64,000 bases of DNA from a bacterium. Its GTDB lineage: Bacteria; Patescibacteriota; Minisyncoccia; Phycocordibacterales; UBA5272. A model generated the notes under the pieces. It ran no database searches. It was not told the DNA's origin and worked only from the letters and a program-made list of their open reading frames with translations. The position numbers were made by a program, and so were the translations under genes. Where the stretch lies: NCBI GenBank assembly GCA_023267535.1, contig JAHFNC010000002.1, forward strand, positions 119,426 to 183,425, in the 5' to 3' direction. Below, one piece after another: positions 4,281 through 50,813 of this stretch; the stretch's first letter is position 1, and every line of letters begins with the position of its first letter.

Positions 4281-5261
4281 ATGTTAATTGACCATATCAC
4301 ATTAAATGTAAAGGCCGGAAAGGGAGGGGACGGCGTAGTCAGATGGCGCCGTGAGAAAGGAATTCCATACGGAGGACCAGCGGGCGGTGACGGAGGAAAA
4401 GGCGGAAACGTTTATCTTCGCGTTGTTCGTGATATCGAAGCTCTTTCGGTTTATAAACACAAAACTGAGTGGGATGCTCCAGAGGGAGAGTCAGGACAAA
4501 AAAGAAGTATGCACGGAAAGGGTGCTGAAGATTTATATTTGAATGTTCCGATTGGCTCAGTTATTTATAATCGCGAATACGATATCAAGTACGAGTGCAT
4601 GGAAGAAGGAGAAGAGATTCTTGTTCTTAAGGGTGGAAAAGGTGGACTTGGAAATGAAAATTTTAAATCTGCTACCAACAGAGCACCAATGGAATTTACC
4701 AAAGGTCAGATTGGAGAGTTCGCGACATTTGATGTTGAACTTGAACTAATTGCTGACGCTGGAATAATTGGTCTACCAAACGCCGGAAAATCATCACTAC
4801 TGAATTCTTTAACTAGAGCTGGAGCCAAAGTTGGCGATTATCAATTCACCACTCTTGAGCCAAACTTAGGCGCTTATTATAAATACGTTTTAGCCGACAT
4901 CCCAGGACTCATAGAAGGTGCGAGTGAAGGAAAAGGGCTCGGTCACAAATTTTTAAAGCACATCAGAAGAACAAGAGAATTAGTTCACTTAGTGTCAGCT
5001 GAAAATGAAGACATCAAGCAAGCTTACAAAACTATTCGCGAAGAACTTGGAAAATTTGATAAAGAACTTTTGAAAAAAGAAGAAATGGTGGTGTTGTCAA
5101 AATCAGATACTGTATCAGAAAAAGATTTAGAGAAGAAGAGAAAAGATTTGGAGAAAGTAAGTAAAAGAGAAGTAACCGTCTTATCTTTATTTGAAGACAA
5201 ATCCGTAAAAGAATTTGGTGATAGATTTATTAAGTCTATGGAAAAGGGGATGTTGGAATAA
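4281..5261 (+). CDS. obg: GTPase Obg/CgtA
   Basis: Obg fold N-domain (KAGKGGDGVVRWRREKGIPYGGPAGGDGGKGGNVYL), G1 GLPNAGKSSLLN, DIPGLIEGA. Confidence 0.9.
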   Translation: MLIDHITLNVKAGKGGDGVVRWRREKGIPYGGPAGGDGGKGGNVYLRVVRDIEALSVYKHKTEWDAPEGESGQKRSMHGKGAEDLYLNVPIGSVIYNREYDIKYECMEEGEEILVLKGGKGGLGNENFKSATNRAPMEFTKGQIGEFATFDVELELIADAGIIGLPNAGKSSLLNSLTRAGAKVGDYQFTTLEPNLGAYYKYVLADIPGLIEGASEGKGLGHKFLKHIRRTRELVHLVSAENEDIKQAYKTIREELGKFDKELLKKEEMVVLSKSDTVSEKDLEKKRKDLEKVSKREVTVLSLFEDKSVKEFGDRFIKSMEKGMLE

Positions 5262-5334
5262 TTTGCCAAATATTTAATTTTGTGTTAATGTAATGTCTGT
5301 TGCACTTTTTTGACATTAAACAAGGGATTGGTTT

Positions 5335-18236: not shown

Positions 18237-18512
18237 TTAGTCACTCCTTTTATCTGTCGGAAACGGCGAAGGGACAACAATTGTGGTCAATTGATTCTTG
18301 ATGTCAGGCTCTTTTGCCTTAGCTTCAATCTCCGCAATATTCTGTTTGATTTTCATCTGGGCGGTGTCTTCTTTTTTCAATTTGACAGCGTCAGACTCAA
18401 TCAGATTTGAATAAGCGTAAAGGATAAGACTAACTGAGCTCATTATTCCAAAAATAGCCCAGACCACGTTTGCAAAAATTTTGTTGCCATCTATCTTTTT
18501 TTCTTCTGCCAT
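18237..18512 (-). CDS. Small single-TM membrane protein
   Basis: ORF 4 bp downstream of the next gene; one TM helix. Confidence 0.4.
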   Translation of the reverse strand: MAEEKKIDGNKIFANVVWAIFGIMSSVSLILYAYSNLIESDAVKLKKEDTAQMKIKQNIAEIEAKAKEPDIKNQLTTIVVPSPFPTDKRSD

Positions 18513-18523
18513 AATCCTTTCTC

Positions 18524-19423
18524 CTATCTATTAAAGACAGTGGCATTGGTAATGAAGAACTTAACTGGCTCTCCGGGGCAGACACCGACTTTTAGCACTG
18601 TCGGGAAACTCATGCTCCCCATAACCGCAATGCAGTCAGCACCTTTACAAAGAAATTCTTTTGGATGTTTCATCAAATAGTATTTCCCGTAAATGTCGTG
18701 CCTTCTATAAAAGGTCATGCTACCAGAGTCGGCTCTTCTTCCTGTGTGGTTGATAAGTCCGACGCAATTTTTTCCTGACCTGTCCGCTGTTCTGATAGCG
18801 CTTTCAAATTCGCTATAGCTTCCGTAAGTGGTTTCGGAAACATCGTAGCAATCAGAGTTCCTTTCTTTTTCAAACTGACTGATTGGAACGACCGGCGGAA
18901 AGTTACAAAATTGATCTTCGTCAGCAACAATCATCTCCTGAGATGCCTGCTGTCTAGAATTCGAATTCAATCCAGATGATGGATTTCCTTCCTGACGCTT
19001 GGAAAAATTTTCCTCGACATCAAATCCGAGATGCGACAGTTTTTGCGAAGAGTCCACTCTCGGTTGTGCTTCAACTCTAACTACGGGTTGGGGAGCGACA
19101 ACAACAAGTGGGGCAGGTTGCGGAACAACTACGGGAGCTTGAGCAACCGGAGTCGGAACGGAAACAGGAACCTGAACAATTTTTTCGACTACTGTTTTTT
19201 CGATTACTTGCTTGTCTTGAAAGAAAGCAATTTTGAACAGAAGTAAGGTGACGATGATGACGAAGGCAAACATACTGAGGATTATCGCCCATCTCCACGG
19301 ACTAGCCCTTTTGGGCATTCTAAGTCTTTCTCCGTGAATGTGAACTCGTTCGTCCTCAACTATGCTTGATTCTCCGTTTATGATTAAAGAGCCTTTCCTT
19401 GGGTCCCTTGGGACAATGTTCAT
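18524..19423 (-). CDS. Membrane-anchored protein with a Pro/Val-rich linker and a Cys-rich C-terminal ectodomain
   Basis: TM helix WAIILSMFAFVIIVTLLLF, linker PVSVPTPVAQAPVVVPQPAPLVVVAPQPVV, six Cys in the C-terminal 150 aa; elevated GC. Confidence 0.45.
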   Translation of the reverse strand: MNIVPRDPRKGSLIINGESSIVEDERVHIHGERLRMPKRASPWRWAIILSMFAFVIIVTLLLFKIAFFQDKQVIEKTVVEKIVQVPVSVPTPVAQAPVVVPQPAPLVVVAPQPVVRVEAQPRVDSSQKLSHLGFDVEENFSKRQEGNPSSGLNSNSRQQASQEMIVADEDQFCNFPPVVPISQFEKERNSDCYDVSETTYGSYSEFESAIRTADRSGKNCVGLINHTGRRADSGSMTFYRRHDIYGKYYLMKHPKEFLCKGADCIAVMGSMSFPTVLKVGVCPGEPVKFFITNATVFNR

Positions 19424-23298: not shown

Positions 23299-24954
23299 TT
23301 AGGCCGAAGCCTGTTGTGTGATTGAAGGAAGATCACCAATCTCACGGAGCTTAGCGCGAAGATATTCGCGTAGCTCTTTTCCGGGTAGACCAGTCTCTTC
23401 CATCTTCAGATGGCCGAGCTTGATGAACGGCCGGTAATTGCTAAGCGCGTGACCTTCTGGTGCCGAGACCACTTTGGCAAACCAAATGGAATCATGCGAC
23501 CAACACTTGAACACCACGCCGTCGTTACACTTCCAGTGGCCGTAACTTGCGGTCAGGAAGCCCTTGGCGAGTGGCTTCTCCTTGAGATAGGCGATTTTGT
23601 CAATCCTTTCTCCGTCACTTGCTACGAGCGTAAGGCGAGGAGACTTGCCATATTGCGGTGCAGCAATGTTGTGATGCACTGGCGTTAAGGCAGGAGTTGA
23701 TGCTTTCTTGAAGGACTTCACCACTCCGTTCGCTATGAGCTTGGATTGGATATGTCCGACCAGCGCAACAATCTTGCCGTAGTCTTTGCTACGTTGCAAG
23801 GAAGTTATGTCATCGGCTACCCATTTGGATAAAATGGAAAAACCAGATTCGACTCCGTGTTTCTTGAGATCGTGGTCGACTTCAATTTTCACGACTTCGA
23901 TTTGCTGATTGCCGAGAGAACCGAACAACTTCACAATTACGCCACCAAGGTCGTAAAAACCAATCTGGCTGTGAAGCATGTCGCTAAGCGGGCGATATTT
24001 GTATCCGGTTTCCACCGGTTCATATTTCCTTGTCGGCTTCTCTTCCGACTTAGTCGGCTCTTTTTTGGCAGATAAGCCTTCATCGTCAGCTACCTTGCGG
24101 AGAAACGTCCACAAGGTTTGCTGAGCTTTCTTGCTCACGCCCTCGAGTTTGGATTCGAAGCCTTGATTGCGGAGCTGTCCAATGGTGAGATAGACGCCTG
24201 ATACTTCCGCGTCCATCAGTCCGCTCTCCATCGGGGCGCTACGCACCTTAACGGCTGTAGTAACTCCTGTGCCGACTTTTCTTTCGCAAACTTCGAAAGT
24301 GACACCACGAACTTCGACGAGTCCCAGTCGACTGCCTTCCCAAATGATTCGGGGGGCAGTTGAAGGTTCACGTTCAATCGCTTCTTCGACGGCCGGAATT
24401 TCTTCGAGCATCGTCGTGGTGGCTGTCGTGATTTCGATGGGTTGCCCCATCATTTGTTCACCGTAAATCACCGGCGGCGCGGTCACCAATGCGTTCCGCA
24501 AAAACTTCCAGAAGGCTTCGATTGCGTCTTTCATGTCTTCATCCTTCATTTTGGAAGCGAAGTAGTTCCTTCCGATATGGAAAGAGGGGATTCTGACCCC
24601 CGCTCTCACTCCGGCCAAAGCCAGCGGATGAAACTCAGGAATCCCGTCGGCGACAATGAAGAGAGAATCCTCGGTAGCCTCCTTGAAAAGAGGAAACATA
24701 CCTTTGGAAATCTCCACCCCGTCGACGACATACAGCTCCTTGTCGTAAAGGTTGTTGAAGAGTTGGCCGATGTCATGGCAAAGGTATTCGCCTTTGCGAT
24801 TTTCGGCTCGTTCGCCTTTGGGCGTGTAATCCGGCTTGGGGCCGGCGACGCGCACCTTTTTTTCCTTTTTGACTGGCTTGGGTTTGTCGGTCCCCTTGGT
24901 AGTCTTTGGTTGACCACCACCGTTCTTGGCGCTATCCTTGTATGTTTTTCCCAC
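23299..24954 (-). CDS. Hypothetical 551 aa protein encoded on a GC-rich island (about 55% GC); basic K/P-rich N-terminal tail, then an unrecognised domain
   Basis: Long ORF with a GTG start after ttaggagaaaacc; codon usage and GC are clearly foreign to the flanks; N-terminus MGKTYKDSAKNGGGQPKTTKGTDKPKPVKKEKKVRVAGPKP. Confidence 0.5.
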   Translation of the reverse strand: MGKTYKDSAKNGGGQPKTTKGTDKPKPVKKEKKVRVAGPKPDYTPKGERAENRKGEYLCHDIGQLFNNLYDKELYVVDGVEISKGMFPLFKEATEDSLFIVADGIPEFHPLALAGVRAGVRIPSFHIGRNYFASKMKDEDMKDAIEAFWKFLRNALVTAPPVIYGEQMMGQPIEITTATTTMLEEIPAVEEAIEREPSTAPRIIWEGSRLGLVEVRGVTFEVCERKVGTGVTTAVKVRSAPMESGLMDAEVSGVYLTIGQLRNQGFESKLEGVSKKAQQTLWTFLRKVADDEGLSAKKEPTKSEEKPTRKYEPVETGYKYRPLSDMLHSQIGFYDLGGVIVKLFGSLGNQQIEVVKIEVDHDLKKHGVESGFSILSKWVADDITSLQRSKDYGKIVALVGHIQSKLIANGVVKSFKKASTPALTPVHHNIAAPQYGKSPRLTLVASDGERIDKIAYLKEKPLAKGFLTASYGHWKCNDGVVFKCWSHDSIWFAKVVSAPEGHALSNYRPFIKLGHLKMEETGLPGKELREYLRAKLREIGDLPSITQQASA

Positions 24955-27879: not shown

Positions 27880-28047
27880 TATGCATTTTGTTCACCAAGA
27901 AAGTCACAGTCCTAGCAGTCTCAGGCATAGATATCTTAGGCAAGTTGCTCTTGATAGAGCGCAGGCGACAAAAGGAAAAAATGAGGAAGAAAATGCTCTT
28001 TCTGGGGAAATATCCGAAAATAAGGAAATTATTACCGAAAAGGAATA
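27880..28047 (+). CDS. Possible small hydrophilic protein (55 aa), below the ORF-track cutoff
   Basis: Strong SD taaggag 8 nt before the ATG at 27880; ends before the palindrome aaagcgcgcttttttt. Confidence 0.25.
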
Positions 28048-28113
28048 GTTTTTTAGGAAGTATTAAAGGCGTAGCTTGAAAAGCGCGCTTTTTTTGTTGT
28101 GTATAACTGACAC

Positions 28114-28141
28114 TTGACAAAAACCAAGTATCTGCTACAAT
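28114..28141 (+). promoter_or_regulatory. Near-consensus sigma-70 promoter (TTGACA, 16 nt spacer, TACAAT)
   Basis: ttgacaaaaaccaagtatctgctacaat read directly from the sequence. Confidence 0.6.
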
Positions 28142-28147
28142 GTAGTT

Positions 28148-28695
28148 CGTAACACTTTCGTTACTGTTCTTTGAGGAGAAAAAGAAGATGAAGAAGCGCC
28201 AACTCGCGACTTTGGATAACAGCCATTCGATCATCGCCATCACCGCGGCCATCGGCACCAGCTGAACCGGCGCCGGCCAGTAGCATGTTCTTCGTCATCA
28301 TCGTCAGGTCCATCGCAGATGTCCTGCGTAGCGCAAGCTTCGCAATGCCCGCAAGCGTAATCGCCGTTTGGCACGAGCAATCGTCGCCGGTCGGCTTCGC
28401 ATCCGGGCCCGAGGAATCTGTGGCGGATGAAGTCATCGCCTCATGGCGTAGGCACACCGAAAAGGCCGGTGGTTAGCCCGCCCATCGAGCTCTCAGAGCT
28501 CTTCGGCGATTTCAGAATCAGCGCCCAACGATAAGGAGGTCAAAACCAGAAACCCAAAAGTAAATCCCAAAAGTTACAGGGACCGCTGCTTGCGGGCTGG
28601 TACACAAATACAATCTTCGCCTCAACAACCAAGTCGGTACATCCGACACCCACTAACGCCCCAAGAACTTCGCTGTTCTGGGGCTTTATTTTTTA
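28148..28695 (+). ncRNA. Candidate structured RNA or leader unit of about 550 nt, GC-rich (roughly 55% GC in a roughly 33% GC genome), running from the promoter to an intrinsic terminator; contains a 25-codon SD-preceded ORF (28188-28265, MKKRQLATLDNSHSIIAITAAIGTS)
   Basis: Promoter at 28114-28141; terminator gccccaagaac-ttcgct-gttctggggc plus a T-run at 28658-28695; all six frames are open across this region, so the ORF-track entries 28161-28457 and 28285-28476 are not trusted. Confidence 0.35.
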
Positions 28696-28710
28696 TGCTA
28701 GAGTATTTAT

Positions 28711-29937
28711 ATGTTTTCTTTTTTAAATAAAAATAAATCAAATTCAAAAAGAATTTATCTGGATAATGCCGGTAGTACACCAACAAGCAAGCTCGCAACG
28801 AGTGAGTTTTCGCGCGTATCTTCTATTTTTGGAAATCCTTCCGCTATTTATAAAGAAGGAGTGGAAGCAAAAAATATTTTAAATGAAGCTAAAGAAAAAA
28901 TAGGAAAAATAATAAATGCACGAACTCATGAAATATATTTTACAGGCTCGGGAACCGAGAGTTGTAACTTAGCCATACTTGGAACTTACAAACAATGGAA
29001 AAAAGAAAATGAATATTCAAATAAATTACCTCACATAATTATTTCTTCTATTGAACATCCAAGCGTTATGGAATTGGTAAACTATTTATCAATAAACAGT
29101 TTAATAAATGTAACTTATCTTCCAGTTTACGAAGACGGATTAATAAAAGTTGAAGATATAAGAAAAGCGATTACCGAAGATACGATTTTAGTTTCGGTTA
29201 TGTATGCTAACAATGAAATCGGAACTGTGGAACCAATAAAAGAAATTGGAAGAATGATACAGGAAATTAAAAGTCAAAAGTCAAAAGTCAAAACTACAAA
29301 CCATCCTTACTTTCATACTGATGCTTGTCAGGCAGGAAATTATTTAAATTTAGATACTTATCGTTTAAGAGTAGATATGATGACTGTAAACAGTAGCAAA
29401 GTCTACGGTCCAAAGGGTGTGGCTATTTTATATAAAAAAGAAGGAATAGATATCGAGCCAGTTTCGTTTGGTGGTGGACAAGAAAGAGGGTTAAGAAGTG
29501 GAACAGAAAATGTCGCCGGAGCATATTCATTTGCTTGTGCTTTGGAAGAATCACAAGAGTTAAGAGAAAAAGAAAGCGAGAGGTTAAAAGAAATTCGTGA
29601 TGATTTTAAAAATAAATTAGAAAAGAAAATACCAGAGGTGACTTTTTATGGTGTGTGGGGAGAAGATAGATTGCCTAATAATATAAATTGTAGAATTCCA
29701 AATATCGGAAGTGATGAGATGATTATTAGATTAGATAATTTGGGTTTTGCGGTGTCACATAAATCAGCTTGTGCCTCACAAGTAGATGATGGTAGTTATG
29801 TAATTAAAGCACTTGGTGCGACAGACAATGAAGCTAAAGAAAATATTAGAATAACAATGGGGAGAGACACTACAAAAGAAGATATGAATAAATTAGTCGA
29901 AGCCATATTTCAAATTTATTCAAAGTTTGCAAAATAA
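28711..29937 (+). CDS. Cysteine desulfurase (class V aminotransferase, NifS/IscS-like)
   Basis: PLP lysine region NSSKVYGPKGVAILY; active-site Cys motif HKSACASQ. Confidence 0.8.
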   Translation: MFSFLNKNKSNSKRIYLDNAGSTPTSKLATSEFSRVSSIFGNPSAIYKEGVEAKNILNEAKEKIGKIINARTHEIYFTGSGTESCNLAILGTYKQWKKENEYSNKLPHIIISSIEHPSVMELVNYLSINSLINVTYLPVYEDGLIKVEDIRKAITEDTILVSVMYANNEIGTVEPIKEIGRMIQEIKSQKSKVKTTNHPYFHTDACQAGNYLNLDTYRLRVDMMTVNSSKVYGPKGVAILYKKEGIDIEPVSFGGGQERGLRSGTENVAGAYSFACALEESQELREKESERLKEIRDDFKNKLEKKIPEVTFYGVWGEDRLPNNINCRIPNIGSDEMIIRLDNLGFAVSHKSACASQVDDGSYVIKALGATDNEAKENIRITMGRDTTKEDMNKLVEAIFQIYSKFAK

Positions 29938-34634: not shown

Positions 34635-34662
34635 CAAATAAAAATCCCGAAAGGGATTTTTT

Positions 34663-34800
34663 GCGTAGGGTTGGATTTGAACGGGAAAGGGGTCGGGAAA
34701 ACGGGAGTTTTCCCGTGGCGGAAGAATGGAAACCGAGGGGTTTCCAAACCGAAGCGATTGATAATGAGCGAAGGTTGTGAAATTACAGCCCTACGCACCA
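34663..34800 (+). repeat. tRNA-associated conserved element, tRNA-Tyr copy (inverted copy of the tRNA-Tyr T-arm/3' end, roughly 100 nt conserved core with two hairpins, direct copy of the tRNA 3' end)
   Basis: Terminator aaaaatcccgaaagggatttttt at 34640-34662; gcgtagggttggatttgaacg at 34663-34683 is the reverse complement of the tRNA 3' region; core GGAAAGGGGTCGGGAAAACGGGAGTTTTCCCGTGGCGGAAGAATGGAAACCGAGGGGTTTCCAAACCGAAG; cagccctacgcacca at 34786-34800. Confidence 0.6.
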
Positions 34801-34854
34801 TTTAGCACAATTAGTAACTCGTGACCAAATCAGAGCCCCTCACCAAAAGATTAA

Positions 34855-50456: not shown

Positions 50457-50486
50457 GCGCAAGCTTTTGGCTTGCGCTCGTTTTTA
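50457..50486. terminator. Bidirectional intrinsic terminator
   Basis: agcgcaagc-ttttg-gcttgcgct followed by a T-run. Confidence 0.65.
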
Positions 50487-50813
50487 TCTCCATATTTGTT
50501 CAATCCAGCAATTGGGGTAAATATGAGGAGTCCCGAATTGGTCATACTGGAGATTGTAGCTATTGCCACACCTGAGTATCTGAATTGGTTGTGGCCTCAT
50601 CTGAGGTGTTTGATACATTGGCATTGGGGCCATATATCCGCCCATATACCCACCCTGGAAACCAAAATACTGGCTACGGGGGGTGTTACCTAAGGATAAG
50701 GCGAAACCGTTACCGGCAATGGAAATGTTCCCGTAAACTCGAGAATTGGCGTTTGCGGGGATTATGGTTACCACCAAAATACAAAGAGCAATTATTGCCA
50801 ACAATCTTTTCAT
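50484..50813 (-). CDS. Small secreted Gly/Tyr/Met/Pro/Gln-rich protein with 3 Cys
   Basis: Signal peptide MKRLLAIIALCILVVTIIPANA; GC-richer patch. Confidence 0.4.
   Translation of the reverse strand: MKRLLAIIALCILVVTIIPANANSRVYGNISIAGNGFALSLGNTPRSQYFGFQGGYMGGYMAPMPMYQTPQMRPQPIQILRCGNSYNLQYDQFGTPHIYPNCWIEQIWR

Follow-up and report, generated by a model that had tools for sequence, protein, structure and literature searches.

What is encoded by a short stretch of GC-rich DNA, with its own promoter and terminator, in the middle of an AT-rich bacterial genome? The question is raised by a unit of about 550 nucleotides (nt) between the genes for a DUF4446 protein and a cysteine desulfurase in a bacterium of the Candidate Phyla Radiation (CPR, Patescibacteria; assembly GCA_023267535.1, contig JAHFNC010000002.1). 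The window, by which is meant the whole 64-kb stretch of this contig that was analyzed, has a mean GC content of 0.35, and the unit, with 58-64% GC, reaches 0.58-0.62 in 200-nt windows over 28200-28600. The excess of about 20 points given in the original prediction, a reading of the letters alone that had proposed a candidate structured RNA here, is borne out by these values. The unit could well be a stand-alone dual-function RNA gene, combining a small open reading frame (ORF) with a lineage-specific structured core, a reading that is held here tentatively.

In such a gene, a near-consensus promoter would start an RNA of about 550 nt that ends at its own terminator, and the first frame, ORF1 (25 codons here, 8-39 in relatives), would yield a fast-evolving peptide from behind a strong Shine-Dalgarno (SD) site. 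A GC-rich core of about 170 nt, selected at the nucleotide level, would work as a folded RNA composed of a closing helix and two GCAA-capped arms, and the last 180 nt or so before the terminator would be unconstrained. The RNA would act other than in cis on the desulfurase gene, and a role in trans may be supposed. The jump in GC content is not an assembly chimera, since an independent assembly in the European Nucleotide Archive (locus L162) covers the entire unit with zero differences. The features of the locus are as follows, where L164 denotes the corresponding locus of a related genome, GCA_023267555.1.

28114..28141, + strand: sigma-70 promoter with extended -10 (TTGACA, 16-nt spacer, TG-n-TACAAT), in a form conserved in eight units
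28142..28172, + strand: transcript start region, with conserved initial bases GTAGTTCGTAACAC and a small 5' hairpin
28173..28178, + strand: SD site GAGGAG, 9 nt before the ORF1 ATG; an equivalent strong SD is present in each related unit
28188..28265, + strand: ORF1, 25 codons and TGA, MKKRQLATLDNSHSIIAITAAIGTS; probably translated, with a third-position GC excess and the frame kept relative to L164
28276..28470, + strand: conserved core of about 170 nt, from the alignment to L164
28285..28476, + strand: ORF2, an open frame of 63 codons without an SD, overlapping the core; probably not constrained as protein
28308..28430, + strand: predicted folded domain, with a closing helix around two elements, one a short hairpin capped by GCAA and the other a long, interrupted arm whose cap is a second GCAA tetraloop
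28477..28658, + strand: unconserved, A/C-rich tail, with no similarity to the L164 tail
28659..28694, + strand: intrinsic terminator, with stem CCCCA(A)GAAC / GTTCTGGGG (28659-28683), loop TTCGCT and tail CTTTATTTTTT
28696..28713, + strand: extended -10 promoter belonging to the desulfurase gene, with the box TGCTAGAGT at 28696-28704 and the ATG (28711) 6 nt further on; it delimits the unit and lies outside it

Transcription signals and the first reading frame

The promoter of the unit (-35 TTGACA at 28114-28119, -10 TACAAT at 28136-28141, with TG ahead of the -10) scores 11/12 in a promoter scan; just five sites in the 64 kb, this one included, come near the consensus. It is the near-perfect sigma-70 promoter with a 16-nt spacer that had been described. 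Bases resembling GTATTTGTAACAC directly follow the -10 box in the window, L164, L168, L166, L172, and L002, and transcription would start at about 28145-28149. The 5' hairpin, GTAAC/GTTAC at 28149-28164, appears in the fold and is unexceptional (z = -0.05). At the other end of the unit, the T run of the terminator stops 16 nt ahead of the desulfurase ATG (28711). This terminator, also described earlier, can be read in the sequence and its hairpin is present in predicted folds; the automatic scan overlooked it owing to a one-base (A) bulge in the stem. All related units finish with a comparable GC hairpin and T run. By its sequence the unit is thus autonomous, with a promoter and a terminator of its own, an arrangement that is kept in eight units, and the discrete promoter-to-terminator layout of the original prediction holds in each of its listed sequence features. 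From these signals we infer that the unit is transcribed, probably very strongly.

The SD site GAGGAG and the 25-residue frame behind it are both present as predicted, and the frame is coding-like in composition, with GC contents at the first, second, and third codon positions (GC1, GC2, and GC3) of 0.40/0.48/0.84. Across six units, the short ORFs have a GC3 of 0.74-0.86 versus GC1/GC2 values of 0.39-0.63, a third-position excess of 0.26-0.40, for which windows of the same length in the tail of each unit served as the null (pooled mean 0.00, sd 0.11). The excess is greater than that of every such tail window in the window (328 windows), L164, and L172, and is matched by at most 3% of tail windows in L171 and L002. 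In this genome, ordinary genes, that for ribosomal protein S16 included, have a GC3 of about 0.2-0.3. The ORF1 homologue in L164 has 36 codons, and the insertions and deletions that separate it from the window copy, of 3 nt and 33 nt, keep the frame. Because of this GC3 excess and these frame-preserving changes, the short ORFs have the statistical character of coding sequence, and ORF1 is probably translated. Its peptide evolves fast, with 12 of 25 residues common to the window and L164, and the frame contains no codon runs. A pairwise search gives a weak nucleotide match of the window ORF1 to L172 (E about 7e-4). Apparent ORF1 motifs shared across units (LATLD, ITAA, and AFQS) were dropped after leave-one-out hidden Markov models (HMMs) failed.

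The conserved core and its predicted fold

The locus L164, in which the desulfurase is 83-85% identical to that of the window, is the sole locus with a homologous unit body. The similarity is confined to the core and has a conserved-variable-conserved pattern: block 28285-28423 has 94-96% identity and contains 68 invariant bases in a row, the segment 28424-28446 (about 22 nt) varies in sequence but not in length between the two genomes, and 28447-28470 is conserved again. After about 28475, no similarity is observed. For comparison, the two loci agree at 180/392 (46%) of the four-fold degenerate sites of six flanking genes, which is near saturation, and the desulfurase gene has 82% nucleotide identity. 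The core seems to be under purifying selection at the nucleotide level. Over the first 46 codons of ORF2, which spans most of the core, 2 synonymous and 6 non-synonymous differences separate the two genomes and 44/46 third positions are identical, placing the ratio of non-synonymous to synonymous rates (dN/dS) near 1. Because this substitution pattern is non-coding, constraint, if any, acts on nucleotides and not on protein. A covariance model of the core matched only its two training copies when searched against the window and 22 related loci (283 kb).

The contigs assembled for the two genomes in the Logan data set SRR14366796 (L001 and L163 for the window, L165 for L164) break at the same point inside the core. 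These breaks are consistent with branching of the de Bruijn graph at an identical stretch common to both genomes, and they confirm that the two species coexist in one sample.

The minimum free energy structure of 28308-28430 is the same as the centroid structure, with z = -3.25, and 0/200 shuffled sequences fold as well. The L164 core, folded alone, gives the same architecture (z = -2.5), and RNAalifold yields a consensus structure for the two cores; the predicted fold is multi-branched. The minus strand of the core folds more weakly (z = -2.3). Each sequence was folded alone and the substitutions of the other were mapped onto the fold. Of 27 substitutions, 17 are unpaired, 5 keep a pair, and 5 break a pair in the plus-strand fold, as compared with 13 unpaired, 4 pair-keeping, and 10 pair-breaking in the minus-strand fold. 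The core probably acts as a folded RNA, as far as these predictions go. The tail folds weakly (z = -1.5); it contains an AAGGAGG (28533-28539) that no start codon follows and, at 28550-28574, two repeats of CCCAAAAGT.

The site in related genomes

Comparison loci were gathered around desulfurase homologues from genome and metagenome collections, and closer homologues were then added by protein search. All seven of the loci with a desulfurase 54-61% identical to that of the window (L002-L007 and L082) have an island of 500-700 nt with 60-72% GC directly upstream of the desulfurase gene. In the closer syntenic loci L164, L166, L168, L171, and L172 (desulfurase 64-85% identical), a GC-enriched unit of 250-690 nt is observed, weakest in L168. 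Only the island of L164 resembles the window element in sequence, and blastn and nhmmer searches of the unit against 161 related loci from the same collections found no similarity. Conservation in related genomes, which had been proposed as a check, therefore holds for the layout, kept in seven of them, and for the body sequence in L164 alone.

Eight units are of the window type (window, L164, L166, L168, L171, L172, L002, and L003; 250-690 nt). They share a frame composed of the promoter TTGACAAA-N12/13-TGCTATACT (TGCTAYAMT), first bases resembling GTATTTGTAACAC, an ORF of just 8-39 codons behind a strong SD, a GC-rich body, and a GC hairpin terminator. Their bodies contain no long ORF and no codon periodicity. 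A second type of occupant, a signal-peptide ORF of 103-185 codons, is found in L004, L005, L006, L007, and L082, with a GC3 of 0.72-0.81 in L004, L006, and L007 and 0.57 in L005. Three of these secreted proteins are mutually homologous, and their family has four members among 5.8 billion protein clusters; because there are so few, the proteins are taken to be orphans specific to the clade rather than recent acquisitions from high-GC bacteria that have been sampled. The step from GC spike to structured RNA in the original prediction is thus only partly sustained, since GC-richness is a property of the locus and GC3-rich protein genes occur there too, while the core itself is RNA-like. The unit was also considered as a frameshifted pseudogene of a secreted protein of the L004/L006/L082 type, and this was rejected with tblastn of five proteins (best E = 0.49).

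Further GC-rich promoter-to-terminator units are observed just upstream of the secreted-protein genes in L004 (3785-4420) and L007 (4220-5140). In each, a promoter close to consensus and a strong SD precede a GC-rich ORF (56 and 141 codons, respectively), and about 370-400 nt of non-coding sequence separate this ORF from the terminator, which is the layout of the window unit. L005 has short GC-rich palindromic intergenic elements (about 4630-5280) that resemble repetitive extragenic palindromic sequences, such as TTCCCGCCTCCGCGGGAATGAC, and are unrelated to the window unit.

A wider reading, possible but on the doubtful side, is that the DUF4446-desulfurase site is a clade-wide hypervariable expression slot, in which a conserved promoter and terminator frame surrounds cargo that turns over completely between lineages, with secreted orphan proteins in certain lineages and, in others, a mini-ORF joined to a structured RNA. 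The cargo would be 20-35 points richer in GC than the genome, with a GC3 of up to 0.9 versus about 0.2 and no homologues outside the clade, and a second GC-rich gene of the window would be part of the same phenomenon. Translational selection fails to explain the GC-rich units because ribosomal protein genes are AT3-rich, and import from sampled donors fails because protein searches found no outside homologues. Candidate processes are a recombination hotspot with strong GC-biased gene conversion or the exchange of cassettes from a pool private to these bacteria. All relatives examined that have a desulfurase of at least 54% identity and this neighborhood hold unrelated GC-rich cargo at the site, some of it secreted orphans, and two of the best promoters of the window lie ahead of its two GC-rich units. 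Should this pattern be general, it would have implications for how symbionts with reduced genomes make new, highly expressed, and possibly host-facing genes and for sharp divergence of base composition within one small genome. If the site is indeed such a slot, an undescribed process would make or maintain GC-rich, highly expressed, fast-evolving genes in episymbiotic bacteria.

The second GC-rich unit of the window is a 551-codon orphan ORF at 23299-24954 (- strand), with 50% GC, a GC3 of 0.57, and no Pfam or NCBIfam match. Its promoter, at 25085-25058, is the sole perfect 12/12 sigma-70 consensus in the window. Positional counterparts have 548 codons in L164, 464 codons in L166, and 555 codons in L002; the last has a GC3 of 0.91, and its product shows no detectable resemblance to that of the window ORF.

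The genes that flank the unit encode IF-2, RbfA, the DUF4446 protein, the cysteine desulfurase, and an iron superoxide dismutase (Fe-SOD), and their nearest relatives are from Patescibacteria/CPR, in metagenome-assembled genomes of Paceibacteria- or Nomurabacteria-like bacteria. Between the DUF4446 gene and the unit lies a 55-codon ORF (27881-28048, + strand) with an SD AAGGAG, a -10-like TGATAGGAT upstream, and its own terminator at about 28066-28096; it is called as a gene in public assemblies and has no family match, and L171 has a 54-codon ORF at the matching place. No self-similarity of the unit was found within the window, blastn against plasmid and phage collections gave no match, and a search for direct repeats around the unit, a possible insertion signature, returned just one 12-nt pair, which is at chance level. 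Elsewhere in the window, a stretch of about 49% GC directly follows tRNA-Tyr (34636-34840) and has no Rfam match, and two ORFs, 50484-50813 (-) and 18237-19423 (-), have a GC3 of 0.42-0.47, above the level of the genome. The former has 109 codons and a signal-peptide-like N terminus, MKRLLAIIALCILVVTIIPA.

Alternative explanations and known systems

Several observations weigh against a dual-function RNA. The genomes of the window and L164 come from the same sample, and recent DNA exchange could mimic selection on the core. The homology of the ORF1 peptide is unsupported beyond this pair, as leave-one-out HMMs miss the omitted sequence, and the window ORF1 is the shortest copy, with an in-frame TGA where L172 continues. 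In more distant relatives, GC-richness at the locus marks protein-coding genes and so is by itself no argument for RNA structure. The ORF2 frame is uninterrupted in the window and in L164, and two viral contigs contain its C-terminal motif in the same frame. Finally, 0/62 predicted pairs are changed on both sides; the two sequences provide no compensatory covariation, which cannot be had because they are only two and nearly identical. What stands of the predicted structured RNA is a core of about 170 nt that is conserved above the neutral level, has a non-coding substitution pattern, and folds alike in two predictions; covariation does not add to it.

It is extremely improbable that the unit is a divergent housekeeping RNA missed by the models, such as ribonuclease P (RNase P) RNA, transfer-messenger RNA (tmRNA), signal recognition particle (SRP) RNA, or 6S RNA. 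The first three had been hinted at earlier, and such an RNA would suit a GC-rich unit behind a strong promoter in an AT-rich genome, especially as none of them is found elsewhere in the 64 kb. However, Rfam returned only eight tRNAs from the whole window at gathering score and, with 4227 models at E <= 10, only chance-level matches in 27900-28900, and ARAGORN found eight tRNAs and no tmRNA over the window. The unit belongs to no known RNA family, in line with the earlier reading, which had left it unassigned. In addition, the body is unconserved among relatives with a desulfurase 64-69% identical, unlike that of an essential RNA, and the contig is at least 227 kb long, so such RNAs may sit outside the window. 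Individually, tmRNA, with its tRNA-like domain and tag frame, was rejected on the ARAGORN result and for want of any tmRNA-clan model in the region at that threshold; bacterial RNase P RNA (P4 helix and core) had no match at gathering score in the window or at E <= 10 in the region; and SRP and 6S RNA were set aside with no Rfam match and a predicted core that is multi-branched. A placement of the unit in the desulfurase leader, as an attenuator or riboswitch-like element in which translation of ORF1 or a ligand would choose between termination at 28659-28694 and read-through, is very unlikely as well. The original prediction had offered a leader-peptide attenuator, and the closeness of the terminator to the desulfurase ATG, Thr- and Ile-rich ORF1 peptides in some units, and a weak hit to His_leader, below threshold, on the other strand (E = 0.17) would fit one. 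The desulfurase gene, however, has an extended -10 box of its own, TGnTAGAGT or TGTAGTATA, 6-7 nt before its ATG in nine loci (window, L164, L166, L168, L171, L172, L007, L170, and L173), two of which, L170 and L173, have a VKOR homologue upstream and no GC-rich unit. Because the gene keeps this box even where the upstream gene differs, the unit is not its leader; the gene also has no SD site, and the spacing from box to ATG suggests that its mRNA is probably leaderless throughout the clade. The ORF1 stop (28265) is about 390 nt from the terminator (28659), the occupant of the slot in more distant relatives is a normal protein-coding gene that has a terminator of its own, and no riboswitch aptamer or T-box family was matched in the E <= 10 search, which gave chance-level hits only.

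Two further explanations give the weight to proteins. In the first, which is rather unlikely, only ORF1 and the promoter would matter: a small-protein gene would be trailed by inert GC-rich cargo, left over from a decaying GC-rich gene that formerly occupied the slot, as secreted-protein genes do in more distant relatives, and the identity of the core would be due to recent recombination or gene conversion between the two coexisting species; a small-protein gene fused to a foreign fragment, as had been suggested, is possible. The GC3-rich signal-peptide ORFs exactly at this place in five relatives, bodies that are unalignable between most units, a shared stretch long enough to break both Logan assemblies of genomes from one sample, and a best-scoring frame that drifts from 0 to 1 to 2 along 28188-28534, like that of a frameshifted gene, all point this way. 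Against it, a tblastn search for the secreted proteins of the relatives detected no remains of them in the window element, coding periodicity past ORF1 is weak (<=8 bits per 90 nt), the conserved-variable-conserved pattern with a diverged ORF1 and an unrelated tail is unlike a single recent tract, and a remnant in a 35% GC genome should drift to AT, whereas all eight units remain GC-rich. A two-gene operon of small proteins is less probable again and is judged unlikely. In such an operon ORF1 and ORF2 would both be translated, ORF2 by coupling to the termination of ORF1 19 nt upstream, and the strong conservation at synonymous sites would be due to mRNA structure governing ORF2 translation, an arrangement known from type I toxin mRNAs of the hok type. 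L164 has kept the ORF2 ATG, L172 has a TTG at this position and an 82-codon ORF predicted there by a gene caller, the equal length of the 22-nt variable segment keeps the frame in both genomes, and the N terminus of ORF2 is moderately hydrophobic. Moreover, 21 nt, GGCACACCGAAAAGGCCGGTG (28450-28470, HTEKAG in the ORF2 frame), have an exact match in two GC-rich IMG/VR contigs, L174 (97-117, -) and L175 (6811-6831, -), in both of which the copy directly follows an SD and ATG in the same frame, in mini-ORFs of 12 and 18 codons (MRHTEKAGVSCKPILPAS and MTWHTEKAGARQ). The match between L164 and L174 extends over 26 nt, the L175 copy lies upstream of a CI-like repressor gene, and fewer than 0.1 such viral matches are expected by chance, by our estimate; plasmid and phage collections contain only chance-level 18-mers of the block, inside genes. 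This viral link leaves room for a coding role of ORF2 and for a foreign origin of the sequence; a reading of the identity as attP/attB was rejected, as no integrase lies beside the L175 match and the composition is unfit. Opposed to translation of ORF2 are the missing SD, the dN/dS near 1, charged residues that break its hydrophobic stretch, the absence of an antisense promoter for an antitoxin RNA in the promoter scan, and the lack of any homologue among 1.84 billion representative proteins. Pfam and NCBIfam gave no match for any ORF of the unit, nor did a reconstructed fusion of ORF1, ORF2, and ORF3 match any of 5.8 billion protein clusters, and a 63-codon open frame at 62% GC is expected by chance in about 1/6 of frames, as estimated from base composition. 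A type I toxin-antitoxin pair was likewise rejected, as the unit has no minus-strand promoter, the hydrophobic stretch of ORF2 is broken, and no family matches.

To our knowledge, almost nothing is known of regulatory or structural RNAs in CPR bacteria beyond the universal ones, and a literature search found no account of such GC-rich islands or small RNAs (sRNAs) in Patescibacteria. As a dual-function RNA gene, the unit is a concrete and testable candidate for such an RNA, with a core conserved like tRNA genes where neutral sites are saturated.

The unit shares features with several known systems. Similar to the large non-coding RNAs of Rfam (RNase P RNA, tmRNA, SRP RNA, 6S, OLE, ROOL, GOLLD, raiA, and HEARO), it is GC-rich, predicted to be structured, and strongly promoted in an AT-rich genome; unlike them, it is matched by no covariance model at E <= 10, and its core is limited to two genomes. 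Leader-peptide attenuators of the thrL, hisL, and pheL type also have a short ORF behind an SD and a GC-rich hairpin terminator upstream of a biosynthetic gene. The unit differs from these in the long distance from ORF stop to terminator and the lack of regulatory codon runs and in having downstream a gene with a conserved promoter and a probably leaderless mRNA. Type I toxin mRNAs (hok/sok-like) resemble it, going by its predicted fold, as structured mRNAs of a few hundred nt with nucleotide-level conservation and an upstream ORF ending just ahead of an SD-less second ORF, but the unit has no antisense promoter, no clean transmembrane peptide in ORF2, no family match, and a dN/dS of about 1. 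Phage "morons" and integron cassettes are likewise compact units of deviant GC content, with different cargo at one site across genomes. The window unit, in contrast, is in a cellular chromosome amid housekeeping genes, with no integrase or attC-like repeats seen, its promoter belongs to the conserved frame and not to the cargo, and the cargo has no homologues outside the clade.

The closest parallel in layout is with dual-function sRNAs. RNAIII of Staphylococcus aureus is 514 nt long and encodes the 26-residue delta-haemolysin (hld), and SgrS/SgrT and SR1/SR1P are further dual-function RNAs. Sequence or Rfam relationship to these is absent, the host is a CPR bacterium, and the likeness is one of layout, drawn from general knowledge. 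The window unit also differs in being 20-25 points more GC-rich than its genome and in a body that turns over fully between related genomes while promoter and layout stay constant. As in these sRNAs, a transcript of about 550 nt would be delimited by its own promoter and terminator, carry a short ORF (here of 25 codons), preceded by a good SD, in its 5' region, and continue after that ORF into a long non-coding part, here predicted to be structured; the architecture thus appears to parallel that of RNAIII with its hld ORF, by analogy and with no homology implied.

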